DNA of 63,588 bases, counting the filler, from Actinomycetota bacterium (GTDB lineage Bacteria > Actinomycetota > CADDZG01 > JAHWKV01 > JAOPZY01), in assembly GCA_025963875.1 (NCBI GenBank). It is 5 parts of 5 records of this genome, joined end to end, with 100 filler letters (N's around TTAATTAATTAA, not from the genome) between each part and the next. Parts side by side here need not be neighbours in the genome. Positions count along the whole stretch, not along the records: positions 32,696 to 53,688 come from JAOPZY010000020.1; 4 more parts are not named here. The stretch is one strand, 5' to 3'. A model generated the notes under the pieces. That model was not told the origin of the DNA, did not search any database, and worked only from the letters and a program-made list of their open reading frames with translations. How positions within the stretch are numbered: the first letter of the stretch is position 1; the number at the start of each line of letters is the position of its first letter. The translations under genes and the position numbers were made by a program. Shown piece after piece: positions 1-52,299 of the stretch.

Positions 1-1925
1 AGGGCCGGGCCGGGGCTGATCGGCTTGGTCTGCCCGCTGGGCGGAGTCGTCGCCGCCAACGGCGGGATCATCTCGAGGACGCTGGCGTCCTGGTTGGTGT
101 ACAGCACCTTCGCGAGCGCGTTGTCCACGAGCTTCTGCCCGAGGCTGTACGCCCACCCGGTCGGGAGGGAGTCGAGGGCCTCGCCCGCCGCCTCCTGGCT
201 GCGCGTGATGATCAGGTACACGGGGTGGTCCCCGAGTCCCTGGTCGACCGCCAGGCTCACGAGCCCCCGCTCGTTGGGCGGGTCGGTGGTGTTCTGGACC
301 GACTCGTAGTCGAAGCTGTTGATGTCCTGGTAGCGCCAGGGGAGCTGCGGGAACAGCGAGATCAGCGTCGTCTTCCCGTGGCCGGGTGCCGCCGGCTGGG
401 CGTGGGCGTACAGGTACTTCACCGCGGCGAGGTCGGCGTTCGAGACGCGGTCGAAGCGCTCGTTGCCGTACCGGGCGACGAGCCAGGCGGGGGCGAACGC
501 CGCCGCCACCAGGCAGAAGCACAACGCCGGCACCGCCACCTTCTTCGGCTCGGTCGACGGCATGAACGCCATGGCCGCCAGCAGGGCGACGAACGGCATG
601 GCGAACAGGTACGCCCGCAGCAGGGCCTCGCCGCCGTAGCTCTGGACGGCGAGCACCGGGAAGGGCGCAAAGGCGAGGAGGAGCAGGCTCCAGTCGCCGT
701 AGCCGAGTTGCCGCCGCCGGATGGCGCCGACCAGGGCGATGGCGGCGATGACGCCCGCAAGGGCGATGCGGATCCCGAGCACGCTCAACCGCCCGGGGCT
801 GCCCTGGATACGCCCCGTCAGGCTGGTGCTGACGTTGGCGCCGAGGTGGCCGACGTCGCCGACGATCAGGTTGAGGTGGCCGGACCAGAACGCGATGGCC
901 CCCAGGCTGATCCAGGCCACCATCGTCACGGCGAGGATCAGGGGGAACCCCCGGAGGGTCGTCCGCCCGAAGATGAGGAGGGCGATCAGGCCGCCGAGCA
1001 AAAGGAACGGCGTCAGCTGGTGGCTGACGGTCATCGCCAGGAAGATGAGGGCGAGGATGGCGATCAGCGCACCCCGCTGGATCGGTGTGGAGCGCGCCCC
1101 TATCCGCTCCTCGCCCCGGCCCCCGAGCCTGGCCATCCACACCCCCATGAACCGCTCCCACCGGTTGCCCTTCCCGGGGTCGGGCATCGGGGGGCGGAAC
1201 CAGCGCAGGGCGACGGCGAGGAAGACGAGGAAGAGGAAGAAGTTGAACGCCTGGGGCGAGAAGTAGTCCTGACCGACCCAGCTGGCGAGGTAGAAGAAGC
1301 CGAGGCCCATCCACCAGGCCCGCTCGTTGCGGGTGACCGCCCGGAAGATGGCGTACAACGGGGGCAGGTACATGAGGTTGAAGGCGAGCGGTGCCCACCG
1401 CAGGAAGACCACCGGGCTGTGCAGGCCGGCGGCCTTGGAGAGGAAGGCTGCGAGAGCGAAGAAGCCCGGCCACGAGAAGCGGGCGTCGAGCGTGGGGATC
1501 GTGGCGCCGTGCTGGGCGATGTACTGCGCGAAGCCGGCGTGCAGCCACGATGTCGCGAACGACGCGTGGGGTTCGACCAGCGGACCGAGCCCGTCGAGCA
1601 ACGCGATCAGGCCGATGAGCTGGAAGGCGAGCAGCGGCCGGCGCAGCGGCCGCTGGCAGAGGGCGAAGCCGAAGCTGACGAGGATGAGGGCGACGGCGAC
1701 GAAGTACACCGGCCCGACGACCGACACGAGGCCCAGGTCGCCGAGGGCCGAGGAGTCCACCCGGAGCAGCGCCAGGACGCCCATGACGAGGGCCGCGAAC
1801 GTCATCAGCGCCATCTGCCCCGTGCTCAGCCCACCGCCGCGCCGGCTCGGAGCCGCGGGCGTCGCCAGGTTCAGGCTCGGCCCGGTGGTGCCGGGCTGGG
1901 TCCGGGGAAGCTTTTCTTCCGCCAT
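1..1925 (-). CDS. Polytopic membrane protein of actinobacterial polysaccharide clusters (putative GT-C-like glycosyltransferase/polymerase); 3' end runs off the window
   Basis: Read manually from ATG at 1925 (MAEEKLPRTQ...); many hydrophobic segments; motifs FATSWLHAGF, ARFSWPGFF, WVGQDYFSPQ; missing from the ORF track because there is no stop in the window. Confidence 0.7.
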   Translation of the reverse strand, partial: MAEEKLPRTQPGTTGPSLNLATPAAPSRRGGGLSTGQMALMTFAALVMGVLALLRVDSSALGDLGLVSVVGPVYFVAVALILVSFGFALCQRPLRRPLLAFQLIGLIALLDGLGPLVEPHASFATSWLHAGFAQYIAQHGATIPTLDARFSWPGFFALAAFLSKAAGLHSPVVFLRWAPLAFNLMYLPPLYAIFRAVTRNERAWWMGLGFFYLASWVGQDYFSPQAFNFFLFLVFLAVALRWFRPPMPDPGKGNRWERFMGVWMARLGGRGEERIGARSTPIQRGALIAILALIFLAMTVSHQLTPFLLLGGLIALLIFGRTTLRGFPLILAVTMVAWISLGAIAFWSGHLNLIVGDVGHLGANVSTSLTGRIQGSPGRLSVLGIRIALAGVIAAIALVGAIRRRQLGYGDWSLLLLAFAPFPVLAVQSYGGEALLRAYLFAMPFVALLAAMAFMPSTEPKKVAVPALCFCLVAAAFAPAWLVARYGNERFDRVSNADLAAVKYLYAHAQPAAPGHGKTTLISLFPQLPWRYQDINSFDYESVQNTTDPPNERGLVSLAVDQGLGDHPVYLIITRSQEAAGEALDSLPTGWAYSLGQKLVDNALAKVLYTNQDASVLEMIPPLAATTPPSGQTKPISPGPA

Positions 1926-1963
1926 AGTGGGCTCTCCGGTGGAGCTACGCCTGGCCATGGCCC

Positions 1964-3397
1964 TCACTCGGCCCCGGCTGCGACGGGCTCTTTGCGCCCC
2001 AGGATCTTGAAGATCGAGGGTAACAGGCAGAACGCCACCACGACCTGGCTCACGAGGTAGCCGAGGCCCACCCCGTCGATGCCGAACCGCCCCATGAGCC
2101 ACCAGGACAAGCCGGTGATCGACAGGAGGAGGACCGCCTGCCAGAAGGCGATCTGGCCGACCCGGCGCTCCACCCTGGACAGCGCGATGTACAGCGAGGT
2201 CACCGCCTTCGCCAGCACGGCGACCGCCAGCAGGCGTAGCAGGCCGGACCCGTGGACCGCGTAGGCGTGCCCGAAGACGCCAAGCACTCGGGGGGCGAAC
2301 AGGACGAGGACGGCCACGGCGGGCCCGATGATGGCCAGGATGCGGCGGATCACGGTCGCGGCGTGGTGGCGGAGCAGGGAGCGGTCCATCGCCCCTTCGA
2401 CCATGAGTGCGACCCCCAGGTTCACGGTGACGAGGTCGAGGGCGTAGATGATGAGGTAGGCGCTGGCGAAGTAGCCGGCCTCTGCCTTGCCCAGCCGGGC
2501 GAGGATCAGCACGGGCAGCAGCGTCCCCGTGGCCATGAAGAGCACGGTTCCGAGGTAGTCGCCGCCCATGAAGCGCCGGATCGATCGGACGCTCACCCCC
2601 ACTGGTTCAGTGGCGCTCGCCCGCATGTGGCGGGGCAGCAGCCGCCGGAAGATGAAGTAGTTGGTGGGGAACAGGGCGATGAACGCCGGCAGCGTGAACG
2701 AGGTGAAGATCCCGTAGTGCTGCGTGACGTGGGCCAGGGCCACGAGCATGCCGATCTTGACGACGCCGTAGAGCCCGTTCTCGACGGGGATCCACACCGC
2801 CTGGCGGATCCCGGTCAGCACCGCGTCCTGGAGGGCGAAGAGGCACCACACCGTGACGGAGGCGCCGAGGGCCGCTGCCAGGAGCCAGCTGTGACCGAGG
2901 ACTGCGGGGATGCGGTTGAAGAACCCCACGTGGATGTGGATGACGGCGATGTAGACGAGGCTCACGGCGACGCCGGCGCTGCCGGCCAGGAGGTAGGAGA
3001 AGAAGGCAAGGCGCCTGGACCCTCCGCCCGCCCGCGGGATGAACCTGGCGAGGGCGGCGGCGAAGGTCAGCTGGCCTCCGATGCCGGCGAGGAGCTGCAT
3101 CAGGCTGATGGCGGCGTTGCCGACGCCCACCTCGGCCGGCGAGTACAGCCGGGCGGCCAGGACCCAGTAGAGGAGGCCGAGCACGGACGTGGCCCCCACG
3201 TTGATGATCAGCGCGTAGCCGTTGCGCAGCAAGGGGTCGCGCCAGTCCTCCCGGAGGCGCCGCAGGGGCGCCAGTGCCAGGCTCACCGGGTCGCGGTGCG
3301 ACGGCAGCCTCATCGGCATCTTATCCGGCGCCTTGAGGGGCGCCTCGGGAGCCGGCGAGTCGACAGATGGAGTGCGGGCAGCCCAGCGGTTGGCCAT
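1964..3397 (-). CDS. Wzx/MATE-like polysaccharide flippase
   Basis: About 12 hydrophobic segments; LRNGYALIIN...LGLLYWVLAARLYSPAEVG N-terminus; glycosyltransferase neighbourhood. Confidence 0.8.
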   Translation of the reverse strand: MANRWAARTPSVDSPAPEAPLKAPDKMPMRLPSHRDPVSLALAPLRRLREDWRDPLLRNGYALIINVGATSVLGLLYWVLAARLYSPAEVGVGNAAISLMQLLAGIGGQLTFAAALARFIPRAGGGSRRLAFFSYLLAGSAGVAVSLVYIAVIHIHVGFFNRIPAVLGHSWLLAAALGASVTVWCLFALQDAVLTGIRQAVWIPVENGLYGVVKIGMLVALAHVTQHYGIFTSFTLPAFIALFPTNYFIFRRLLPRHMRASATEPVGVSVRSIRRFMGGDYLGTVLFMATGTLLPVLILARLGKAEAGYFASAYLIIYALDLVTVNLGVALMVEGAMDRSLLRHHAATVIRRILAIIGPAVAVLVLFAPRVLGVFGHAYAVHGSGLLRLLAVAVLAKAVTSLYIALSRVERRVGQIAFWQAVLLLSITGLSWWLMGRFGIDGVGLGYLVSQVVVAFCLLPSIFKILGRKEPVAAGAE

Positions 3398-3411: not shown

Positions 3412-4701
3412 TCAGCTGGCCTTGCGGGCGGTGCGTGCCCAGCGCCGGCTACGGAGGTAGGCCAGGGGGCCCACGAGCGCCCCACCCATCTCGACGAGGG
3501 TGAGCTGCCGCGGGAACGTGGAGGTCTTCTTCTCGTTCTTCGGCGACGCGGGGTTGAGGAAGTAGGCCACGCCCCGGGGAGCCCGGCGAAGAACGTCCGC
3601 GCGGGTCTTCGGGTTCAGGAGGGCCTTGGTGAGCACGGCGGCAAGGCCCACGCCGTAGCCCCGGACCGCACGCCGGAGGTCGGCATACTCCCGGCGGTGG
3701 TGGTGCCGGACGAGCGAGCGCGGCTCGTAGACGAGCCGGTGACCGGCCAGGATGATCTGCAGGAAGGCGTCGATGTCCTCACCGCCGCAGGCCGGCGTGG
3801 CGGGGCCGAGGGCGGTGTCGAAGCCACCGATGCCCCGCAGCACCGCCGGGTCGAAGGCGGCGCTGGCCCCCGAGCCGAACTTGCCCACGGAGTAGGGGTA
3901 GAGCGGGTCGGGCTGCGCGTACTCCTCGAGGTCGAAGATCTTCTGCTCGTAGCCCTTGTCGAAACCACCGAACTCCTCGATCCATACCTGCGACTGCGTG
4001 TCGAGCTCGGCGGGCAGGATCATCCCGGTCACGCAGGCCACGCCAGGGGCTGCCTGGAAACCCAGCACGAGGCTGCGCAGCCACAGCCGGTCCACGAGCA
4101 CGTCGTCGTCGACGAAGGCCACCACGTCGCCTGCGGCGGCCCACAGGCCGCAGTTGCGGCCCGCCGAGGCGCCCGGCGTGGGCTCGAGGAGGTACCTGAC
4201 CCTCGGCTCGTCGCCGAAGCGCTCGGCCACCATCTCCCGTGTCGCCGGGGTCCGGGGGGCATTGTCCACGACGAGGATCTCGAAGGCGGGGTACTCCGCC
4301 CGCAGGATCGATTCGATGCAGGCACCGACAGGTCCGGGCCGCTCATGGGTGGAGATCACGACCGAGGCGAACGGGAAGGAGGCCTCGTCGTAGCGCTGGC
4401 AGGCGGCTGGGTGCTCCGATACCAAACCGGTCTCGGTCAGGCCGTCCGGCGTTCGGACGCCGTCGGCGGCCAGGTGGTCCACGATCGGCTGGCCCAGGCG
4501 CTCCCAGACCAGCCGTGCGACCTCGCCGGCCGGGATCGCGCCGCCGCGCAGGTCAAGCTGCAGGGTTCCGAGAGGACGGCCGTGCAGGCGCACCAGCACG
4601 AGCGCGGAGCCGTAGTCCTCTTCCCCGGCCAGCGCCTCGGGACCGATGCTCGCCAGCGCCTCGGAGATCTCGAGGTCAAGGACTCGAACGGGAGTCAACA
4701 T
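3412..4701 (-). CDS. Glycosyltransferase family 2
   Basis: SVVISTHERP, LVVDNAP, AFVDDD (DxD), GGEDID motifs. Confidence 0.9.
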   Translation of the reverse strand: MLTPVRVLDLEISEALASIGPEALAGEEDYGSALVLVRLHGRPLGTLQLDLRGGAIPAGEVARLVWERLGQPIVDHLAADGVRTPDGLTETGLVSEHPAACQRYDEASFPFASVVISTHERPGPVGACIESILRAEYPAFEILVVDNAPRTPATREMVAERFGDEPRVRYLLEPTPGASAGRNCGLWAAAGDVVAFVDDDVLVDRLWLRSLVLGFQAAPGVACVTGMILPAELDTQSQVWIEEFGGFDKGYEQKIFDLEEYAQPDPLYPYSVGKFGSGASAAFDPAVLRGIGGFDTALGPATPACGGEDIDAFLQIILAGHRLVYEPRSLVRHHHRREYADLRRAVRGYGVGLAAVLTKALLNPKTRADVLRRAPRGVAYFLNPASPKNEKKTSTFPRQLTLVEMGGALVGPLAYLRSRRWARTARKAS

Positions 4702-4965
4702 GAAACGACAGAGCACCTTTCAATCAGTTTTGTGATTCGATCACGTGCGGCAGCTGGGATCCGGCCCCCATAAGATGATGTCGGCACCCGAATGCCTGGT
4801 CTGAAGCGGGAAATGCCTCAGGATAGTCGGCCTACACTCTTCCTTTAAACTTTCCGTCCCGGATTGCCGAAGTAAGAAGTTGAAAAACGGTGTCGTCCCG
4901 CTCCAGGGTGAGGCGTGACGCCGACAGCCCGCCCAAGCCGGGGACCCAGGGGAGGTACATCGGAA

Positions 4966-28015: not shown

Positions 28016-28414
28016 CGAGCCCAGCGGTGAGAGCTGCGTCGGGGGGCCGGCCGTTGGTCGTGAGTGCCTCGCAGGCCGCAGCGGCGGGAGGGAGGGCCGG
28101 CAGGATGAGTCAGCAGGTTGGTGAGGTCCACCGCCGGTGGTCGACAGTCAGGGGCTTGCTCCTGGTTGCGACGCATTCCTCAAGGGACAGTGGGGGTCTC
28201 TGCCCGCGACGAGTGTGAACCCCCAAGCTGAAGGTAAGGACCTCCATAAGCTGTCAATCGGCTGTGGGGCTGCGCATCAAGCCGGCTCGCCGACAAGCGG
28301 GCCCCGTCGGGCGCCGATCTCGACCCAGTGGGGCCCGTTGGGGCTGGAAGCCCTGGCTCGCGACCTGGGGGAGCCGGGGTGGAGAGGAAGGCAGCCACGA
28401 GAGACGATCTGGGC

Positions 28415-28798
28415 TCAGGAAGATTGGGAGGGCCAGCGGATAGTGAGGACAACGGAGTCGTCCAGAGCCTGCCAACGATGCCTGGTGCCGGGGCCCCACA
28501 CCGCGTAGTCGCCGGGGCGGGCAAGGGTGACGGGCTCGGCATCGAAGTACAGGTTGAAACGGCCACTGACGAGCAGGCACAGGGTGGTGGCTGCGTCGTC
28601 GGGGTTCCAAGCGGGCCGCGTGTCGCCTGCTGGATGGAGGCCCCATTTGACCTCGACGTCATCGGTGACGCGGGCATCGTCGCCCCGGACAAAGCTCCCG
28701 ACGAACCACCCCCGGTAGTCAGCGCCGTCGGTTTCGGCATTCCCGACGTGAGGGGTGCCTGATGGCCGAGGGCCGCGTGGAGTTGGTTGGTGGCTCAC
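28415..28798 (-). CDS. Small cupin-fold protein
   Basis: GWFVGSF, EVKWGLH, LLVSGRF, GDYAVWGPGTRHRW; GTGA overlap with the upstream stop. Confidence 0.75.
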   Translation of the reverse strand: MSHQPTPRGPRPSGTPHVGNAETDGADYRGWFVGSFVRGDDARVTDDVEVKWGLHPAGDTRPAWNPDDAATTLCLLVSGRFNLYFDAEPVTLARPGDYAVWGPGTRHRWQALDDSVVLTIRWPSQSS

Positions 28799-30510
28799 AG
28801 CAGCTCGGCGGGTACCGGAGCCAGGCGGCGAACCCGTATCGCAGGGAGGGACACTCGCTCTGGGAATTGCCGCTTGAGGTAGGCAAGCCCTTCGACGAGG
28901 ACCATGAGCCCCTCGCTCGTCCACTGGTCGGTTGCCCGAATGAGCCCGCTGAGACCGCGCTGGGGAGAGGCACTCGGAGCCGGCAGGGTGGAGCACCGGA
29001 TGAGGTTCGCCACTTCCCAGTTCGGGCGGAGAACCTGCTCGAACGCACGCCAAAACCTTGGGTCATGGATGACGAGGAGGGTGCCGATCTCATAGTTGCC
29101 AGAGAGGAGGTTGATACCCACTCCTACGCAGAGCGCCTGGTAGGAGTCGGGACGTTCCTGTAGCCAGCGAAGCGGCTTGCTCTTCTCTACGAACCACATA
29201 GGCTGCAGGTCCCGATCCGCAAGTTCAACCTCGCGACCACCGAGCACCTCTTCGAATAGCTCTCGGTACAAGGTGGCCGAGGGTGCGACTTCAGAAGCCA
29301 GGGCCTGGGAGTGAGGGAGGACCGAAGGCTGATGGAATGCCTTCGGGATGACACTGAGGAGGCCCGGGGAGTCGGACACGACGGCACTCCTGCGTTGGGC
29401 CAGGACGACAAAATCGTTGTGGGGCTTGGGGCGGGCGATGGCGAGGAGGGTGAGCACGCCGCCCGAGCACACCCGATTGTCGAAGTCTGCGAGGGCGCCG
29501 CCATGGGGAAGAACCTGTGCCCGCAAGGGCATGTGCTTGTCGGGAGCAGCAAGCAGGTCGTGGATGCTCCTGGTCTGAGCCAGGGCACCCGTCAGTTCAT
29601 CCGCAAGGAGACCAGCACTCAGCCGGTAGTGCAGGAACGAGTCGGTCGAGAACGTGGCCGACAGACGTCCCCGGCGCGGATCGAGCTGCCGCAGCCTGAA
29701 GATCGGGGAGTCGTAGATCTCCAGACTCTTGGCTTCGATTTCGCAGAGGAAACGGAGCGCCGACGAGCGGAAGGCATCGATAGCTCGATCGGGGGCAACG
29801 GTCGCTGAGATTCCGCAGTCCTCTTGCGGTGATGAACGGCCGAGGCCGGCGAGTGGCACGCAGAGGCCCGACCATGCGGGTCGCGTGGCTAGCGCCAGAC
29901 GGACTCGCCGCTCGTTGATTTCCAGCTCGTACGACGCGAGCCCTCCTCGGTCCAGGGAGTCATCTGAGTAGTACGCGGTGAGGACTTCTCGGGCGCCGAG
30001 GGGCAAATGCTTCGAGTCTTCTCGTCGCTCTGGCAGGCCTTCGGCGGAAGCGAGAGCCGGGAACACTTCGTCGCAAGCCTCTAGGTACTCGATGCGGAAC
30101 AGACGGGCATACTCCCGGATCACCTGTGGGTCGAGGGTCGTGAGTCGGGCAGGACGAACCTTCGTCGTTGTCTGGCGGCGACGACCAGGTGGCAACTGGG
30201 CGCTCTCATCATGTAGCTCCCGCATGGCCTTGGCTCGAAGGCCAAGGAGCTCGCTCCGGAGCGCTTCGGCTACGGCGGCGTCCCCTTGGGCGAAGTGGCG
30301 GGCGAGAGCGTCCAGAGCCTGTTCCCTGGGGATGTGGCGGCCGTGCTCCCACTCCCAAAGCGAATGCTTCGACGTACCCACCGCTGATGCGAGAGCAAGG
30401 CCCTTGAGGGGACGTCCGAGCGCCGTTTCCCGCAGCTCGACAAGGCGGCGAGCCAGTGCCCCGCGGCATGAGTCGCTGTCATCGCCATGAGCTGGGACGG
30501 CCAGCGCCAT
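28795..30510 (-). CDS. XRE-like HTH fused to a Nudix-like C-terminal domain
   Basis: LASAVGTSKHSLWEWEHGRHIP HTH; QRRS...LSVIPKAFHQP...LYRELFEEVLGG. Confidence 0.7.
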   Translation of the reverse strand: MALAVPAHGDDSDSCRGALARRLVELRETALGRPLKGLALASAVGTSKHSLWEWEHGRHIPREQALDALARHFAQGDAAVAEALRSELLGLRAKAMRELHDESAQLPPGRRRQTTTKVRPARLTTLDPQVIREYARLFRIEYLEACDEVFPALASAEGLPERREDSKHLPLGAREVLTAYYSDDSLDRGGLASYELEINERRVRLALATRPAWSGLCVPLAGLGRSSPQEDCGISATVAPDRAIDAFRSSALRFLCEIEAKSLEIYDSPIFRLRQLDPRRGRLSATFSTDSFLHYRLSAGLLADELTGALAQTRSIHDLLAAPDKHMPLRAQVLPHGGALADFDNRVCSGGVLTLLAIARPKPHNDFVVLAQRRSAVVSDSPGLLSVIPKAFHQPSVLPHSQALASEVAPSATLYRELFEEVLGGREVELADRDLQPMWFVEKSKPLRWLQERPDSYQALCVGVGINLLSGNYEIGTLLVIHDPRFWRAFEQVLRPNWEVANLIRCSTLPAPSASPQRGLSGLIRATDQWTSEGLMVLVEGLAYLKRQFPERVSLPAIRVRRLAPVPAELL

Positions 30511-30674
30511 GGCGGCATTGTATCGGCGGCCGGACGACGAGACCAGCGAAAGAGTTTTGTTCGATTTCGAACTCAAGAAAGCTCGAAACAGCTCGATTGG
30601 CGATGGCTCGGCATCAAAGATGAGCCATGAAAGCCCGGGAATGGCCCCTGGCTCCAGCTCACGGGAGGTCCAGC

Positions 30675-31043
30675 ATGAAGATCCAACTGCCGATCGACAC
30701 CTCCGCGGTTTCGTTCATCGACGTCATGCCGCCGGAGCCATTTCTCGACGGCCACACGAAGCAGCAGAAGGCCGACGCCAACGGCGAGCCGCTGTACTCG
30801 GTTGAGCTGGTATGCATCGGGACCGAGGGCGACGAGATCCTGTCAGTGACGTTCCCCGGCCCTCCTCCGGCCGGAATCTGTCAGGGCATGCCGGTGAGGG
30901 TGACGGGCCTCATGGTCACCGGCGGGGCCATCGGAGACCGCTTCGGGCTCACATTCCGGGCCACCGACATCGAGCCCCTGTCGGCCGCGGACGCAGAGAC
31001 TGGCCGTCAGCCCAGCAGTGGCGCAGCGGGCTTGAACCGATGA
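30675..31043 (+). CDS. SCO3933-family / Pra-like protein of actinomycete integrative elements
   Basis: LPIDT, QQKAD.NGEPLYSVEL, PVRVTGL, GLTFRATDI; GGAGG RBS. Confidence 0.75.
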   Translation: MKIQLPIDTSAVSFIDVMPPEPFLDGHTKQQKADANGEPLYSVELVCIGTEGDEILSVTFPGPPPAGICQGMPVRVTGLMVTGGAIGDRFGLTFRATDIEPLSAADAETGRQPSSGAAGLNR

Positions 31044-31327
31044 AGGAGAACCTGCAACCCCAGTTCCTGAGGATCCGGTGGGAGGTCACCACGGAGCAGG
31101 GCGCCGCCGTCATGCTGGAGACCATGGCGTGCCTACGGCATCGCCGGGAAATCGCGCTCGCATACCCCAGCGCCCGAGGAGTCGGAGGGCGGGGCGATGT
31201 CTGCGACCTCTGCGAGGGCCGCCATCCGCGGCCACTCGGATCCGAGCTACCCAGTTCGCACCGCAGTCAGCTCGGGTCCCCTGACGGCAGCCTGGCACGC
31301 CCGGCCGCTCTCGGCGCCCCGCGCTGA
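31040..31327 (+). CDS. Hypothetical protein
   Basis: ATGA-coupled to the upstream gene; CxxH and CxxC motifs. Confidence 0.4.
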   Translation: MKENLQPQFLRIRWEVTTEQGAAVMLETMACLRHRREIALAYPSARGVGGRGDVCDLCEGRHPRPLGSELPSSHRSQLGSPDGSLARPAALGAPR

Positions 31328-31597
31328 GCAAATAAGTCCGGGATCGATGCCCTGCTGCAGGGGGCCCGAGGTGACTGCGGCACAGGCGTGACCGTGTCGC
31401 AGGCCGTTTCCCGAGCCTCAACGACGCCACCACAAGCAAATTGAGCCGTGGCCACCTGGACGAGATCGCTGTAAACCACGGCGTGGTGATCGGGGAGATT
31501 GCCGCACATTCCGTGACCCGACCTCGGTCCGGATCGCGGAATCCCCGATACTGGGTGCCGGCCGCCTTTGAGCAACTGCCGGGGGGCATGCGTGAGC

Positions 31598-32152
31598 TTA
31601 CGCTCGCAAGAGGCCAACAAAGACCCAGATGACTGCTGTGAGGAATACGCTGGCCAGAAACGGCCATGTTGCAGCCCAGGAGATCTTGACCCTGGTCAGG
31701 CGAGTCTCCGTAGCGTACGGGACGGACTCGGGCGGCGACCCCTTCAGCAACCGTCGGAGCTTCTCTTCTGCAGTCCGGTAGGCGCCACGGTCTTTGGCAT
31801 TGCGAGCTTCCACTTGAAACAGTAGACCCGCGAGCAAAACCAAGCCACCAATCGCAATCATCCTGACGAGAAGGCGCAATTCCCCGGCATGTTGAACCTT
31901 TTGGATAGCCTCCATCGAACCCTTACTTAGGAGAAGGTCGAACGAGACGAGACCCAAGAAGGCTCGGAGCTGAATGGCTCTCCGCCGGTCCATCGACTCG
32001 CGAAAGTAGCCGGCTATCTCGACTAGAGAGGGTTGGGCCAGTGACGGTGGGCTGCCCGACTCTTCCGCCCGGGCTCCATTTCCAAGCGAGGAGGCCTGGA
32101 CCTTGACTGGCCGTACAGCCTTGTTGCGCTGGCCCGTTGCCCGCACGTGCAC
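31598..32152 (-). CDS. Hypothetical membrane protein
   Basis: 2-3 hydrophobic segments; visibly more AT-rich; AGGAGG before GTG. Confidence 0.5.
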   Translation of the reverse strand: MHVRATGQRNKAVRPVKVQASSLGNGARAEESGSPPSLAQPSLVEIAGYFRESMDRRRAIQLRAFLGLVSFDLLLSKGSMEAIQKVQHAGELRLLVRMIAIGGLVLLAGLLFQVEARNAKDRGAYRTAEEKLRRLLKGSPPESVPYATETRLTRVKISWAATWPFLASVFLTAVIWVFVGLLRA

Positions 32153-32467
32153 CCTCCTGGGACGTTTCCGCCAGTTTACCTTAAGTGCCCCAGGCAGAAA
32201 TCCGGCCCATCATGTATGACACCTTCCTTGTAAGGGATGCTCGGCGGCGTGGAAAACGTGCCTGGGGGACGACGAATCGGCCTGGGAGCAGGGGAAACAG
32301 GTTGGCGTCAATTGCCGCTGGTTATCAGCGTTGCGCTCCTTTCACGGCCTCAGACGGCCTGGAGACGGCCTGGAGGTGCCGTCGCCGGGGCCCGATCCAT
32401 CAGGGGGAGCGCTTCCGGGAGCAGGTCGCCCACAGGGCCACCAGCGCGTAGCGGAGTAGTAGCCACG

Positions 32468-32595
32468 GCGCGGAAGAGACGAAAGAGGTCCGTGGCGCGC
32501 TCGAGATCGCTGCGCACGGCGGGGTAGGCGTAGGTCAGGAGACCCATCGCCACGCCGACGATGACCGGGTCGACCCCGGACCGGAACAGCGCGAC
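32468..32595 (-). pseudogene. nhaA: Fragment of an NhaA-type Na+/H+ antiporter; similarity ends after LFRLFR
   Basis: ALFRSGVDPVIVGVAMGLLTYAYPAVRSDLERATDLFRLFR resembles actinobacterial NhaA; the frame then diverges and stops at 32350. Confidence 0.55.
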
Positions 32596-32695
32596 NNNNN
32601 NNNNNNNNNNNNNNNNNNNNNNNNNNNNNNNNNNNNNNNTTAATTAATTAANNNNNNNNNNNNNNNNNNNNNNNNNNNNNNNNNNNNNNNNNNNN
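32596..32695. other. Artificial contig spacer
   Basis: N-run with TTAATTAATTAA. Confidence 0.98.
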
Positions 32696-33398
32696 GATCG
32701 GCTTCCTTGGCCCCATACCGGAAGTGGAAGACCTGCCGGTGCTTGCGTTCGACGGCTGCGCCGTTGGCGAGGCGCACGGAGACCGGAAGACCGTAGAGGT
32801 CCGTCGCGGTGACGAAGAGGTCAAGTTCCCGGACAAGGGGGCTTGTAACCTCCGGGTCCTTGCCCATGCCGTCGAGAGCGGTGACGAGGTTCGCGTACAT
32901 CCACCGGCCGTCGAGGAGCGACTTGGGCGGCCGTTCCGGCTTGAGATTCACGTCCTTGGAATGCTTGCCGTCGTTGTAGAGCTGGACGATGTCGCCCTTT
33001 TCGATCCACAGCTGCTTCAGCTGGTCGAGGCTCTGATTGTTGGCGAGCGCCTTCGCCAGGAAGATCCCGTTGATACCGCCGGCAGAGCTGCCGGTGAGGA
33101 TGTCGACGACGAATCGACGGCAGAGCGGATCCCCGGGGCGAGGCGTCCCTGGGTCGTCGGGGCCGAGCTGGGCAAGCTGCCGGTAGACCTGTTCGGTGCC
33201 GTCGAGAGCTTCGGTCGGAAACGCGACGGCAGTCTCTGGGTCGAAGGTCTCGCCAGCCGTTGCCCGCACAAGCCGCAAGAGCTCCTGGGCGACGCCGTTC
33301 ATGTAGATGCAGAGCGAGGACCCGCCGTAGAGCACGACGGCAAGGCGCACTTCCTCGTCCGCCTCGATCTTCGGCGCTTCAACCCCCACCTCGACCAC
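32696..33398 (-). CDS. Patatin-related protein, N-terminal part
   Basis: EVRLAVVLYGGSSLCIYMNG, GSSAGGING (GxSxG), LDLFVTATD. Confidence 0.88.
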
Positions 33399-34938
33399 GT
33401 CCTTTCCGCCCGGCCAGGCGTCGCTGGGCGCGGCACCTGAGCGACTTCGTGCATATAACGAGTGTCTGTTTGACCGCGAAATACGCGGTCAGGCAGACAC
33501 TTGATTTTGGGCGCATCAAAACATCAAAACTAGTGCACCTTCGCATTAATCCCACGCATCCAGCGCAGCCTCCATGCGAACCTCGCAGGGTGCCGTTGTC
33601 GACGGCATGAACCGTCCCCGGAGCCGGAGACCCGGCTCCTAGACGGCTCGCCTGCGAGCGACTCCCGGGTCCCCCCGGGCGGCCCGGTGCCGGGCAGGAC
33701 CTGCGCTCATCGTAGAGATGACGGCGCCGGTCACGCCGTGCTGGGACAGTCCCAGCCCGACGGTGCGTGACGCGTGCGGGCGCACGCGTGGATCCGCCGC
33801 CTCGTGCGGCGATGTTTCGGGCACCGACGAGGTCCCGGTGGCCCGTGTGCCCGCAGTGCAGGCAGGAAAACGAGCGTCCCCTGGGCTTGGGGGCCGCCTT
33901 GTGGCACTCCGGGCAGGTGGACGACGTCCCCCGCTCGTTCACGAGCACCACCTCGATCCCCGCCAGCTCCGCCTTGTCTTTGAGGCACGCCATGAGGTGC
34001 GTACGCCGCCAGTTGCGAAGCCGCAGGTTCTGCTGTCGTCCGCAGTCCCTGGTGGTGATGCCCTTGGGATCGCCAATTACGACGGTGCTGACGTTGTGCT
34101 CCACCAGCCACGACACCACAGCCTTGGCCGCCTCGTGCTGGCCCTGGCGGACCCTGCGGCGGTGACGGGCCTCGGCTCTGCGGCCGGAGGCCCGGTGGCG
34201 CCGCCAGCGGCGGCTGCCCCTCTGGCCCTTGGAAGGTGCCTTTCCTGCCGCCTTCTGGGACCGTCGCTTGGTGTCCTCCAGATGCAGGCGCTCCTCGGAC
34301 CGGATGGCCCGTCCCGAGACCAGCAAGGCCTCGTCGCCGGTGACGACAGCGTACGGGTGGATGATGCCGAGATCGACACCGGCAAACCTTGCGGGATCGA
34401 GGGGGTGCACCTCCACCGCCACCTCGGCTGTCATGTCAAGGTAGAGCCGTCCCGCCTCGGCGACAAGGGTGACCGAGCGGAGCGACCCGGACGGGTAGGG
34501 GATCGCTCTCCCGAGGCGCACCCACAGCTCGGGAGGGCCCTTGGCAACCCGGAGCCGGACGCGGGAGCCGTCAACGGCGAAGCATCCCTTGCGAAAGCGC
34601 ACGGGGACCAGTGCCCGCTTGCGCCGGGGGAACCCGGCTCGGACACCCAGCTTCTTGCGCTTAACTGCCTCGAAGAATGCGGTGGAGTAGTTCTTCAGGA
34701 CCGCCTCGGCGCACTGCCGGGACAGATCACCGAACGTTGTGCCCGTAAGCTCACGGCACAGGGCCGAGAAGTTGGCCACCTCGGGGCGATGCTGCTCCCG
34801 GAGCCGGCGGTTCCCGTCGATCACCCAGGCCCACACGTCTCCGGCGGAGCGCAGCAGGCCGTAGCAGCGACGGCGCTGGGCCGGTGTCGTCCGCAGGGCG
34901 ATCCTGGCGGTGCGGTGGACGGTGGGCACGGAACACAT
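33379..34938 (-). CDS. tnpB: RNA-guided endonuclease TnpB; conserved part ends near 33700 and the frame reads through the element end
   Basis: GFPRRK, GVDLG (RuvC-I), VVIGD, VNERGTSSTCPEC / CLHCG Zn finger, HRDLVGARNI (RuvC-III). Confidence 0.92.
   Translation of the reverse strand: MCSVPTVHRTARIALRTTPAQRRRCYGLLRSAGDVWAWVIDGNRRLREQHRPEVANFSALCRELTGTTFGDLSRQCAEAVLKNYSTAFFEAVKRKKLGVRAGFPRRKRALVPVRFRKGCFAVDGSRVRLRVAKGPPELWVRLGRAIPYPSGSLRSVTLVAEAGRLYLDMTAEVAVEVHPLDPARFAGVDLGIIHPYAVVTGDEALLVSGRAIRSEERLHLEDTKRRSQKAAGKAPSKGQRGSRRWRRHRASGRRAEARHRRRVRQGQHEAAKAVVSWLVEHNVSTVVIGDPKGITTRDCGRQQNLRLRNWRRTHLMACLKDKAELAGIEVVLVNERGTSSTCPECHKAAPKPRGRSFSCLHCGHTGHRDLVGARNIAARGGGSTRAPARVTHRRAGTVPARRDRRRHLYDERRSCPAPGRPGGPGSRSQASRLGAGSPAPGTVHAVDNGTLRGSHGGCAGCVGLMRRCTSFDVLMRPKSSVCLTAYFAVKQTLVICTKSLRCRAQRRLAGRKGRGRGGG
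33461..33501. repeat. Intergenic palindrome (18-bp arms)
   Basis: AGTGTCTGTTTGACCGCG-AAATA-CGCGGTCAGGCAGACACT. Confidence 0.75.
33530..33790 (-). ncRNA. Candidate omega/reRNA scaffold overlapping the tnpB 3' end
   Basis: Position plus nested hairpins (33620-33639 inside 33609-33649; 33591-33607); boundaries inferred. Confidence 0.45.
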
Positions 34939-34967
34939 GTTCGCAAGGATAGCGAGGGGTACCGACA
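34931..34967 (-). promoter_or_regulatory. RecA-NDp (PafBC-type) promoter plus LexA box at the tnpB start
   Basis: Minus strand TGTCGG-N10-TATCCT (34967-34946) followed by CGAAC-ATGT-GTTC (GAAC-N4-GTTC at 34931-34942). Confidence 0.7.
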
Positions 34968-35080
34968 GAAAACGCCGCCTTTCCAGGCCCGACGAAGAAA
35001 GTTTGAAAGAGAGGCGACCTCCTCTCATCTCGAAGATATGGAGGGCCAAATCAACTGACTGTTATTAATGCGAGGCAGCA

Positions 35081-35617
35081 CTAGGTCTGGGGTCCCTCCG
35101 TCGCCGTGTGGACGAACGCCTCGAGGTCCGGCAGGTGAGCCCAGGCATGGCGGAAGGGATGCGCCGGCATCCCGGTCGTCGATCCGACGTGCTCACCGAA
35201 CGTCAGCGTGCGGTCTTCCCGCGTCCCGGGCGGTACCCGCCCCCAGTCGTCGTCGGCGATGGTCCGGATGGTCGCCACGAGGCGGGCGTTGGTTGCCCGG
35301 AAGCTCGTGACCGTCTCCTCCCAGCCCCTGGCCTCCTTGCGTTCGATCTCGGCGGCATTGAAGAGGTCGAGGGACGCCTCGTCGGTGACGGTGTTCCGGA
35401 TGCCGGGCGGACGGCCCGCACGGATGTCCTCGATCGTGCGGAGGGCGACCTCCTCCCAGGTCTCGATGTGGCCGGCGAGGTCGCGGGCCGACCAGGCGCC
35501 GCTCCCGATCGTCCCCCTGGCTTCTGCGGCATCCCTGCTCAGTCTCGAGAACAGGGCGTCGAGCGACTCGGAGCCCTCGGTGAGGATGGCAGCGGCCTCG
35601 GCCGGCGTCTCGTTCAC
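35081..35617 (-). CDS. DinB/maleylpyruvate isomerase N-terminal-like protein
   Basis: WSARDLAGHIETWEE and C-terminal HAWAHL; GTGA overlap with the zwf stop. Confidence 0.75.
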   Translation of the reverse strand: MNETPAEAAAILTEGSESLDALFSRLSRDAAEARGTIGSGAWSARDLAGHIETWEEVALRTIEDIRAGRPPGIRNTVTDEASLDLFNAAEIERKEARGWEETVTSFRATNARLVATIRTIADDDWGRVPPGTREDRTLTFGEHVGSTTGMPAHPFRHAWAHLPDLEAFVHTATEGPQT

Positions 35618-37064
35618 TGCAGCGCCTCCGAGGCGGGGTGGGAATGGCGAATCGCGTCGTGGTCGTGATCGATCGGGCCCGGGTTGTGCCAACGCCGGTG
35701 GTGGGCGACGACGTGGTCGGCCTCGGGCGGCCCCCAGCTTCCCCGCGGGTAGGGGTACACGGGGCCCGGATGGTCGAGCAGGGGCTGGACGATCTGCCAG
35801 GCAGTCTCGACGGCGTCCTGGCGGGCGAAGCGGGCGGCGTTGCCCTCGATGGCGTCGGCGAGGAGTCGTTCGTACGCCTCGTGGCGGTGCCCGAAGACCT
35901 GCTCGAAGTCCACGTCGAGTTCCACGGGATAGCTCACGAGGGCCTCTCCCGGCTGCTTGGCCTGAAGGCTCACCGTCACGCCGTCGTGAGCGCCGAGGCG
36001 GAAGACCAGCAGGTTGGGGTGGGGCCGATGGTCGGTCGAGCTGAACAGCATGCGGGGCGGGGTCTGGAACTCCACGATCGCCTCGAGCGACGTGGTCGCG
36101 AGGGCCTTGCCGGCCCGTACGTAGAACGGGACCCCCGCCCATCGCCAGCTCTCGATGTCGAGGCGGAGGGCGGCGAAGGTCTCCGTGGTCGAACCCGGAG
36201 CGACGCCGGGCTCGTCGAGGTACCCCACGTACTGGCCCCGCACGAGGTACCGCGGGCTGGCCGGGTGCATCGCCTTCAGGACCCTCTCCTTCTCGTCGCG
36301 CAGCGCCTCCGCCCCCGCGCTCGACGGAGGATCCATGGCGAGGAAGGCCACCACGTTGAGCAGGTGGTTCTGGACGACGTCCCGGATGGCACCGACGGTG
36401 TCGTAGAACGAGCCACGGCCCTCGACGCCGAACGACTCCGCCATCGTGACCTGGATCCCGGCGATGTAGCGGCGGTTCCACACCGGCTCGAGCAGGCTGT
36501 TGGCGAAGCGGAACACCATCAGGTTCTCCACGGACTCCTTGCCGAGGTAGTGGTCGATGCGGAAGATGGCCTCCTCCCGGAACACTTGGTGAAGCACGCG
36601 GTTGAGCTCCTGGGCGGATGCCAGGTCCCGCCCGAACGGCTTCTCGACGACCACACGGGCGCCCTTGTCGAGGCCGGCGGCGGCCAGGCCCTGCACCACC
36701 GCCTCGAAGAGAGATGGCGGGATGGCCAGGTAGTGCAGCGGCCGCTCCGAACGGACGTTCTTCAGGGCGTCGGCGAGGCGTTGGAACGTCGCCTGGTCAC
36801 GGTAGTCGCCGTTGACCAGGCAGAGGTTGGTGGTGAGCTGCTCGATGGCGGCCGGGTCCGGGTCCTCGACGCCCGCCTTGATGGCCTCGGTCGCGTAGTT
36901 GCGGATCTTGTCGTCGTCCCAGCCGACGGCGGCGGCGACACCGATGACGGGGATCTTGAGCCGCCCTTCGGCGGTCAGGTGGTAGAGGGCCGGATAGAGC
37001 TTCTTGTGGGCGAGGTCCCCGGTGGCGCCGAACAGGACGAGGGCGCCGGACCGCTCCGCCTTGG

Positions 37065-51091: not shown

Positions 51092-51502
51092 TTGGGAACC
51101 GACCAGTACCACGAGCCGCCGAACGAGCTGCCCGACTACATCCGCACCTTCGCCCGCATCTGCACCTCCCTGCAGGAGGAGGCGGAGGCCATCGGCTGGT
51201 ACGAGCAGCGGATCGCGCTCGAGACGGACGCCGAGGCCCGGGCCATCATGCGTGACGCCCAGGGCGAAGAGTTCAAGCACTTCAGCATGGCGCTGGAGTT
51301 CCTTCTCCGGCGCAAGCCGCGCTGGCGCGAGATCTGTCAGGGGATCCTCTTCAGTGAGGGGGACATCGTCGAGCACGGTGAGGAGGCGGAGGCAGAGGCC
51401 GAGCCTGAAGCCGGTGCCGAAGCCCACAGTCCCCACCCATCCGGACCCGTCGACGCCTCCGGGTCCCTCGGCATCGGCGGTTTGAAAGGGGTCCCGGAAT
51501 GA
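51092..51502 (+). CDS. Encapsulin-associated ferritin-like protein with cargo-loading peptide
   Basis: YHEP, SLQEEAEAIGWYEQR, EEFKH; C-terminal GSLGIGGLKG. Confidence 0.9.
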   Translation: MGTDQYHEPPNELPDYIRTFARICTSLQEEAEAIGWYEQRIALETDAEARAIMRDAQGEEFKHFSMALEFLLRRKPRWREICQGILFSEGDIVEHGEEAEAEAEPEAGAEAHSPHPSGPVDASGSLGIGGLKGVPE

Positions 51503-52299
51503 ATCATCTGCTGCGCCAGATTGCTCCCATCTCCGAGTCCGGCTGGGCCCTCCTCGATCAGGAGGCCCGGCAGCGCCTGGGGGCGACGCTCGGCGCCCGC
51601 AAGCTCGTGGACTACGGCGGCCCCTACGGTTGGCAGTTCTCCGCGGCCGACCTCGGCCGGGTGAAGCCCCTCGCTGCGGAGCCTGCGGACGGCGTCACCG
51701 CCGTGCAACGGGTCGTCCTCCCCGCAGTCGAATTCCGCGCCGACTTCGTCCTCTCCCGCGACGCCCTGTCCGACTACGACCGGGGCGCCGTGGACACCGA
51801 TCTGACCGCCCTGGACGACGCCGCCCACCGCATCGCCATCGCCGAGAACGCCGCCGTCTTCCACGGGATGGAGGAGACGGGCATCCTGGGCATCGCGGAG
51901 GCATCGACGCAGGCGCCGATCCCCCTCGGCGAGGACGTCAAGACCTACCCCCGCCACGTCGCCCAGGCCGTGGAGATGCTGCGCAACGCAGGGGTCGGTG
52001 GCCCCTTTGGCCTGGCGCTCGCCCCCCGCGCCTACACCGCATCGACCGAGGTGGTCGAGCTCAGTGGCCTGGTGCTCGACCACCTCGCCGAGATCCTCGG
52101 AGGCCCGGTCGTCTGGGCGCCGGGTGTGCGCGGTGGCGTCGTGCTCAGCCAGCGAGGCAACGACTTCCTGATGGAGGTGGGCCAGGACCTGTCGATCGGC
52201 TACGACCACCACGACGCCGACTCAGTCCACCTGTACCTCGAGGAGAGCCTCGTCCTGCGCGTCGCCACCCCTGAAGCGGCGGTCTGGCTCAAGCCCTGA
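51499..52299 (+). CDS. Family 1 encapsulin shell protein (Linocin M18)
   Basis: MNHLLRQIAPIS..GW, GARKLVD..GPYG, GQDLSIGY, LYLEES. Confidence 0.95.
   Translation: MNHLLRQIAPISESGWALLDQEARQRLGATLGARKLVDYGGPYGWQFSAADLGRVKPLAAEPADGVTAVQRVVLPAVEFRADFVLSRDALSDYDRGAVDTDLTALDDAAHRIAIAENAAVFHGMEETGILGIAEASTQAPIPLGEDVKTYPRHVAQAVEMLRNAGVGGPFGLALAPRAYTASTEVVELSGLVLDHLAEILGGPVVWAPGVRGGVVLSQRGNDFLMEVGQDLSIGYDHHDADSVHLYLEESLVLRVATPEAAVWLKP

Follow-up and report, generated by a model that had tools for sequence, protein, structure and literature searches.

We analyzed a stretch of 63,588 nucleotides (nts) from an Actinomycetota bacterium (assembly GCA_025963875.1), here called the window (63.6 kb), and in particular a segment from JAOPZY010000020.1 that carries a tnpB gene between terminal inverted repeats (TIRs). 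Because tnpB is on the minus strand, the right-hand end of the element in the window is its left end (LE), and the left-hand end is its right end (RE) (Table 1). The product of tnpB matched the Pfam families OrfB_IS605 (PF01385; E 1.8e-10, 41.5 bits with a cut-off of 30.5) and Cas12f1-like_TNB (PF07282; E 1.8e-19, 70.1 bits with a cut-off of 26.3). The distance from the LE to the ATG of tnpB is 143 nt and tnpB fills the remainder, so there is no transposase gene inside the element. A preliminary description, made from this DNA alone, had named tnpB as the sole gene between the arms, and the analyses of open reading frames (ORFs) and Pfam domains agree with it.

The 21-bp inverted repeats of that description are also present. 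The arms match at 18 of 21 positions, and each begins CTAGTGC and finishes TCGCATTAAT; the LE arm reads ATTAATGCGAGGCAGCACTAG on the plus strand, the reverse complement of the outside-in sequence in Table 1, and the repeat variant of the window can be written ATTAATGCG..G.GCACTAG. A repeat search of positions 33300 to 35300 ranked the pair first among 36 inverted pairs, and a degenerate pattern of the arms had two matches in the window, which were the two arms themselves, and none in 100 shuffles. The same 2 kb also holds chance inverted pairs of 26 to 27 nt at 70 to 73%, and an 18/21 repeat taken alone is modest evidence. The evidence for the ends is strong because related loci, described below, conserve the same ones. 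With the TA counted as duplicated, the restored site is CATCAAAAC-TA-GGTCTGG; the claim that excision would leave a single CTAG holds as a reconstruction. As had also been noticed, this CTAG contains the TAG stop of the gene that lies upstream in the orientation of tnpB, a gene of the DinB_2 family. The stop is the reverse complement of positions 35081 to 35083 and would persist in an empty site.

Table 1. Features of the tnpB element in the window and of IS630-family elements beside related tnpB elements (positions in L008, L025, and L034 are those of the respective locus)
Feature	Position	Strand	Remarks
Whole element, including both CTAGs	33530..35084	-	Delimited by the arms and by the same boundaries in related loci
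Element proper	33533-35081		1549 bp
Presumed TA target duplications	33531-32 and 35082-83
Flanking C and G	33530 (C); 35084 (G)
TIR, tnpB-upstream end (LE)	35064..35084		Outside-in: CTAGTGCTGCCTCGCATTAAT
TIR, tnpB-downstream end (RE)	33530..33550		Plus strand: CTAGTGCACCTTCGCATTAAT; minus strand: last 21 nt of the guide-RNA scaffold
tnpB	33379..34938	-	ATG at 34938; stop at 33379-81; conserved protein to ~residue 425
Presumed omega (guide) RNA scaffold	33533..33770	-	Overlaps the 3' end of tnpB and ends at the RE
Presumed guide segment	33511..33530	-	Flank DNA just beyond the RE; minus strand: G TTTTGATGTTTTGATG...
DinB_2 / MDMPI_N-family gene	35081-35668	-	TAG stop formed by the last element base and TA
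L008 (Acidimicrobiales metagenome-assembled genome), IS630 element	4014-4923		910 bp, repeat-bounded, decayed
L025, intact IS630-family element	1613-2750		1138 bp; NF033545, 280.8 bits (cut-off 100)
L025, transposase gene	1613-2710	-	Stop is the terminal TAG
L034, intact IS630-family element	3734-4917		1184 bp; NF033545, 269.5 bits (cut-off 100)
L034, transposase gene	3781-4917	+	Stop is the terminal TAG

The active site of the window TnpB is predicted to be rearranged but complete. In an alignment of 22 TnpB sequences, D189, G289, D369, and E335, an alternative Glu, are invariant, as is the zinc finger C342/C345/C359/C362. Gly289 occupies the canonical position of the RuvC-II Glu, where the IGD of the query aligns to the MED of Cas12f 9nzq, and E335 sits 46 residues beyond G289 and six residues before the CxxC. 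The window TnpB has in this the rearranged RuvC-II feature, with Glu replaced by Gly or Pro (here Gly) and an alternative Glu about 45 residues downstream, an arrangement that has been described for TnpB2 (PMC10530073), for the RIIr-5 clade (PMC10691335), and for Fanzors (PMC10711439). A protein search with TnpB gave 2488 matches at E <=1e-10 among 8000 candidates scored, most of them about 460 to 470 amino acids (aa) long and from uncultured Actinomycetota. In a plasmid collection of 72,556 records, tblastn with TnpB returned one weak match (33% identity).

Beyond about residue 425, the tail of TnpB shifts frame among relatives. Close relatives in the 22-sequence alignment finish ...INAGVH or ...TYAGVH. 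INAGVH is encoded by ATT AAT GCn GGn GTG CAC TAG, in which the repeat arm supplies the final six codons and the terminal TAG supplies the stop, and window-type tails ending ..VH (e.g., INAGVH) occur in 17 of 120 TnpB hits. One relative, P0002, stops at the TAA of ATTAAT, and others stop at the terminal TAG. The window tnpB, whose tail is out of register with those of its close relatives, has no stop in frame inside the element and reads through the RE (the left arm in the window) into the flank to position 33379. The tail looks constrained as RNA rather than as protein, and if it is free in frame to this degree, the read-through in the window need not be disabling.

A genome scan with the 22-sequence alignment gave 80 loci with 53 to 65% TnpB identity, from Micromonospora, Actinoplanes, Actinomadura, Spirillospora, and Dactylosporangium and from metagenome-assembled genomes (MAGs) of Acidimicrobiia and Actinomycetota. 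When the best 21-nt inverted repeat for each gene was sought without any motif, (C)TAGTGC...GCACTA(G) ends were recovered in most loci, with matches of up to 21/21. Exact TAGTGC...GCACTA ends with a repeat identity of at least 20/30 were found in 31 of the 80 loci plus the window, and some reached 29/30. GCACTA was at the expected right end in 64 of the 80 loci, 44 of which also had a recognizable left motif, and the right flanks of all 64 were different. The base preceding the left TA was C in 41/44 loci and the base following the right TA was G in 55/63, giving the flank context C-TA...TA-G. Copies in the same genome were 87 to 99.7% identical over about 1.37 to 1.52 kb; L034 and L036, for example, were 99.67% identical over 1514 bp, and their similarity ended at the CTAGs. 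None of the 80 elements, where delimited, has space for a second gene. The ends are therefore real, conserved, and mobile. The expectation that homologous tnpB genes would be bounded by the same ends was borne out: the boundaries are TA-GTGC...GCAC-TA inside CTAG and are not hairpins of the IS200/IS605 type.

The IS630 link of this element family is supported by the sequences of transposase elements in the related loci. The preliminary description had looked to IS630 transposases with matching TIRs as the source of mobility. For related loci this stood, with examples at L008, L025, and L034; for the repeat variant of the window itself, no such transposase was found among the best 120 relatives of the L025 transposase. 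The 910-bp element at L008 adjoins the tnpB element, with a TA in common. It contains a frameshifted IS630 remnant that matches NCBIfam NF033545 in two collinear segments (E 9.8e-6 and 0.0029) and DDE_3 (E 5.4e-5). By tblastn, the remnant covers residues 183 to 376 of the transposase P0122 in three frames, and it shares about 90% identity with proteins of 376 aa annotated by NCBI as "IS630 family transposase." The repeats of the L008 transposase element match the ends of the tnpB element at 19 to 20 of 22 and at 21 to 26 of 30 positions; the two ends of the tnpB element match each other at 17/22.

The IS630-family elements at L025 and L034 likewise adjoin tnpB elements, and their repeats begin TAGTG in a CTAG context. 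The TAG stop of both transposase genes consists of the target TA and the next base, the same device as in close relatives of the window tnpB, so the complete reading frame of these transposase genes depends on the insertion context. Transposases of the L025 type have the tails INDSGH and INDSAH, which are in the register of the window (ATTAAy ... CAC TAG) and differ in sequence from INAGVH. The proteins alone gave independent evidence: a second tail, RANVA, was found in 25 of 120 TnpB hits, compared with 115 of 120 hits to P0122-type IS630 transposases. RANVA is common to two unrelated proteins because each gene extends into a shared repeat (...AAC GTT GCC TGA...), which is the right end of the Acidimicrobiia-type loci. 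An IS630-family element directly beside a tnpB element, with the TA at the junction shared, was seen in 3 of the 80 loci (L008, L025, and L034), and the regenerated CTAG seems to offer the next element a place to insert, leading to tandem arrays.

Clustering of the flanking ORFs of the 80 loci (1229 ORFs) gave recurrent clusters that lacked a transposase, in a scan that covered 21 recurrent ORFs. The recurrent clusters were housekeeping families, such as ABC transporters and acyl-CoA dehydrogenases; IS630 ORFs that occurred once in the flanks were recovered later by tblastn with P0122.

We assigned the guide segment according to the model of TnpB and its omega RNA (PMC13565253 and PMC10711439). 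An alignment of 53 right ends was conserved as far as the CTAG and random past it. The consensus fold of 41 sequences has three helices, and 94.8% of the cells pair, compared with 81.7% in shuffles (none of 500 reached the observed value) and 34 to 46% with slid partners. The third helix joins five bases after a conserved GCGAGGA to five bases inside the right repeat, with compensatory changes in all five pairs (5/5). In the window, fold prediction gives this helix as UUCGCAU/AUGCGAA, and the last 170 nt have a folding energy of -98.2 kcal/mol (z -3.76). Rfam gave no relevant match at E <=1 in positions 33000 to 35600 and none at the gathering score in the whole window. A structured guide RNA at the 3' end of tnpB, reading into the flank, is present as a predicted RNA, and the RE is simultaneously a repeat arm, a base-paired stretch of this predicted scaffold, and the final codons of the gene. 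At positions 33513 to 33529, within the flank, CATCAAAA occurs twice in tandem on the plus strand, and the minus strand of this repeat is the presumed guide region (TTTTGATG TTTTGATG).

The target of these elements is an uncommon tetranucleotide. In the flanks of the 80 loci (600 kb), CTAG is about 10-fold under-represented, with 165 observed versus 1568 expected from base composition; a paper on Haloquadratum mentions CTAG only as an avoided tetranucleotide. A 2-bp duplication is inferred because TA is present at both ends in the window and in the related loci, and IS630-family elements are described as inserting into TA and duplicating it (PMC2170065). About one-fifth of the CTAGs remaining in the flanks share bases with the stop of a long ORF on either strand. 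Stops of long ORFs also coincide with element ends, at 11/44 LEs and 22/64 REs. Control CTAGs in the same flanks coincided with such stops at 39/166 and 27/166, and because of these rates we dropped stop-codon targeting as a separate property and regard the overlap as a by-product of CTAG targeting. The flanks are not symmetrical: G is found two bases before the left TA in 35/44 loci, versus the mirror-image C after the right TA in 23/63 (Fisher p 1.2e-5, with loci as the unit of counting). Such an asymmetry is unexpected for a symmetrical transposase. The occupied right junction has A at the position that matches the left-side G, and we tentatively suggest that this G may be part of the adjacent motif of the nuclease.

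Taken together, the window element, of 1.55 kb, is probably a non-autonomous IS630-type (Tc1/mariner-like, DDE) transposon whose only cargo is tnpB and its guide RNA. An IS630-family transposase made elsewhere would bind the two repeats, excise the element, and paste it into a TA, preferably within CTAG, with duplication of the TA. With a repeat that begins with G and finishes with C, CTAG would be restored at both junctions, and a host gene that ends in TAG, such as the DinB-family gene, would therefore keep its stop after insertion. Transcription through the right end would give a guide RNA whose final part is copied from the flank. Element-free copies of the site would then be cleaved by TnpB, and repair would copy the element back in. 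The left-only G two bases before the TA may lie in the TnpB motif, with GCTA at the empty site versus ACTA at the occupied right junction. That the element is of the DDE type, non-autonomous, and moved in trans by an IS630 transposase had been proposed in the preliminary description, and the conserved ends, the IS630 elements with matching repeats, and the RANVA tails all favor that proposal.

The general arrangement has already been reported, and the suggestion that it might be undescribed does not stand; the window element belongs to a known kind. In PNAS 2023, Altae-Tran et al. (PMC10691335) describe a TnpB branch in IS630 transposons with symmetrical ends, and inverted repeats for all six DDE-associated TnpB branches. 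They also report solo TnpBs whose flanking ends hardly differ from those of elements with a transposase, and which are hence taken to be moved in trans, and they suggest a possible link of such TnpBs to Fanzors. Like the IS630-associated "DDE-6" TnpBs of that report, the window tnpB lies inside symmetrical IS630-type ends, with its 3' end within 250 bp of the end of the element. Unlike it, the DDE-6 elements carry a transposase and a separate helix-turn-helix (HTH) protein beside tnpB, whereas the window element has no second gene. The main text of the report does not mention a CTAG site, a stop codon in the end, or a stem formed between the repeat and the guide RNA, and its supplements may hold end sequences; in the text available, no transposase is named for the RIIr-5 clade. 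The literature otherwise yielded only general reports and none on this Actinomycetota family, and the same supplements might bear on novelty. Relative to these general reports, as far as the main text of PMC10691335 goes, the added details are the use of CTAG as a site, an end that is triple-coded, the RANVA tail as a signature, the candidate motif, and the distribution across Actinomycetota.

The element has traits of several other known systems. With IS630 / Tc1-mariner insertion sequences (ISY100, PMC2170065; ISMsm2-like elements of Micromonospora) it shares inverted repeats of about 20 to 30 bp, TA at both ends, and CTAG; a gene stop codon within the terminal repeat is likewise a feature of the IS630 insertion sequences at L025 and L034. 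In contrast to such insertion sequences, it has no DDE_3 transposase, and its cargo is an RNA-guided nuclease with a guide RNA. In Fanzor1 and Fanzor2* (PMC10711439, PMC10530073, and PMC3627910) the RuvC-II Glu has also moved to just before the zinc finger, and Fanzor nucleases are often alone in inverted-repeat DNA transposons, including Mariner/Tc1. Yoon et al. 2023 (PMC10711439) showed for Fanzor elements that the guide-RNA scaffold includes the repeat and the target duplication, and here too the repeat is part of the predicted scaffold. Unlike Fanzors, the window TnpB is bacterial, has 469 aa versus about 600, and lacks introns and nuclear signals. The IS1341 group of IS200/IS605 also has tnpB as the sole gene and a guide RNA at the 3' end that reads into the flank. 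Older accounts give such tnpB-only elements no inverted repeats or duplications and subterminal hairpins (PMC3627910 and PMC13565253), whereas the window element has inverted repeats and TA at both ends. IS200/IS605 elements are defined by a Y1 (HUH) TnpA, subterminal hairpins, and the lack of inverted repeats and of a duplication, but here there are repeats and TAs and no second gene. IS607 elements have a serine TnpA, GG at the ends and target, and no inverted repeats (PMC13565253); the ends here are GTGC...GCAC in CTAG.

Several observations weigh against the IS630 explanation. Apart from tnpB, Pfam found no transposase in the window, in a set of 86 ORFs that are 170 aa or longer and have coding-like G+C at third codon positions (GC3). 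No IS630 element with the repeat variant of the window was found, none of the best 120 relatives of the L025 transposase has an INAGVH-like tail, and no empty site was seen. GCACTA is missing from its expected position in 16 of the 80 loci, some of which are cut by contig ends or degenerate, and another 20 lack a recognizable left motif. The end counts (31/80 and 64/80) required a motif that contains TA, although the motif-free search gave the same ends in most loci, and the asymmetry test counted loci, not independent insertions. Cut-and-paste excision leaves a break, and the benefit of TnpB is less obvious there than for IS605/IS607 elements (PMC13565253). The window copy itself has a read-through tail, arms that match at 18/21, and C instead of G at -2, and it may be inactive.

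This last possibility, in which the window would carry a stranded fossil that belongs to the right family but has ceased to be mobile or functional in this genome, strikes us as unlikely but far from negligible. The tail of tnpB lacks a stop within the element and is frameshifted against the tails of close relatives, 3 of the 21 arm positions are mismatched, there is one copy with no transposase in 63.6 kb, and the left flank is CC-TA, not the common GC-TA. On the other hand, the conserved part of the protein (425 residues) is undamaged and retains every catalytic and zinc residue, the tails of relatives differ in frame, so the tail seems free to vary, the predicted RNA fold is intact, and 63.6 kb is only the visible part of the genome. 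The targets of some IS5-family groups resemble CTAG, and a different DDE family with TA/CTAG-like targets (e.g., ISL2, IS1031, or IS427) might own the ends and move the element. Inverted repeats that enclose TnpBs together with ISL2, IS630, or IS1031 transposases are known (PMC13565253), and no transposase with the exact repeat of the window was found; yet all three transposase elements with TAGTG ends in CTAG belong to the IS630 family by NCBIfam, the RANVA tail is shared with IS630 transposases specifically, and the recurrent flank ORFs of the 80 loci include no IS5-type gene. We regard this alternative as improbable.

Still less probable is that a serine recombinase moves an IS607-like element by way of a circular intermediate, with TA as the crossover dinucleotide and the abutted repeats as a palindromic recombination site. 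TnpBs with the rearranged Glu are characteristic of IS607 lineages (PMC10711439). A serine recombinase would also be compatible with TA at both ends and a palindromic junction. However, IS607 elements have no inverted repeats, end in GG, and insert at GG (PMC13565253), no serine recombinase was seen in the window or among the recurrent flank ORFs of the 80 loci, and the transposases that share the repeats are of the DDE_3/IS630 type. We give very little credence to a chance repeat, or to a tnpB of the ordinary IS200/IS605 kind that landed in an older miniature inverted-repeat element. The window arms match at just 18/21, and chance pairs of similar length lie nearby, but the same ends accompany tnpB across 53 to 94% protein identity. 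The older miniature element was excluded, because the right-hand (RE) repeat is a covarying stem within the guide-RNA scaffold; close relatives, moreover, take the terminal TAG as the stop of tnpB, and 17/120 hits end ..VH.

On a wider reading, a large Actinomycetota clade of rearranged-site TnpBs, which could be much of RIIr-5, would travel as solo cargo of IS630-type transposons and not in IS605/IS607 elements. One 20- to 30-bp end of these elements would be triple-coded, being at once the transposase binding site, a guide-RNA stem, and the C-terminal codons with the stop. The TA/CTAG target would double in the nuclease motif, GCTA marking the empty site and ACTA the occupied one, and the clade would provide a bacterial counterpart of Fanzor1 in Tc1/mariner elements and a natural system in which to ask what an RNA-guided nuclease does for a cut-and-paste transposon. 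We hold this combination to be doubtful, though possible.

Cas12 descends from TnpB, a compact enzyme for genome editing whose known role is to bring back IS605/IS607 elements when their excision has left no scar. What it does for a DDE transposon that moves by cut-and-paste is a question raised in a 2026 review (PMC13565253). The present family gives material for that question: exact boundaries, a candidate transposase lineage (the 376-aa IS630 proteins with RANVA tails), a guide RNA in which the final stem is the predicted transposase binding site, and a candidate recognition motif. For annotation, genes labeled "IS605 OrfB" in high-GC Actinomycetota can be delimited by CTAGTGC...GCACTAG.

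Between the element and a patatin-like gene (32640 to 33398), positions 33461 to 33501 form an 18-nt inverted repeat, 89% complementary with a 5-nt loop, followed by TGATTTTGGG on the plus strand. This hairpin looks like an intrinsic terminator; a weak Rfam match to "mir-3927" (E 0.16) on it was taken as chance. Positions 28100 to 33000 have a lower G+C content (0.52 to 0.68, compared with 0.68 for the window) and few coding-like ORFs; they contain a 593-aa ORF with an HTH_31 domain, a weak cupin match, and the patatin-like gene, and may be an accessory region beside the insertion. Farther away, and unrelated to the element, a gene for an encapsulin shell protein (Linocin_M18, E 8.6e-76) lies at positions 51409 to 52296, downstream of a cluster for cytochrome oxidase and bc1.

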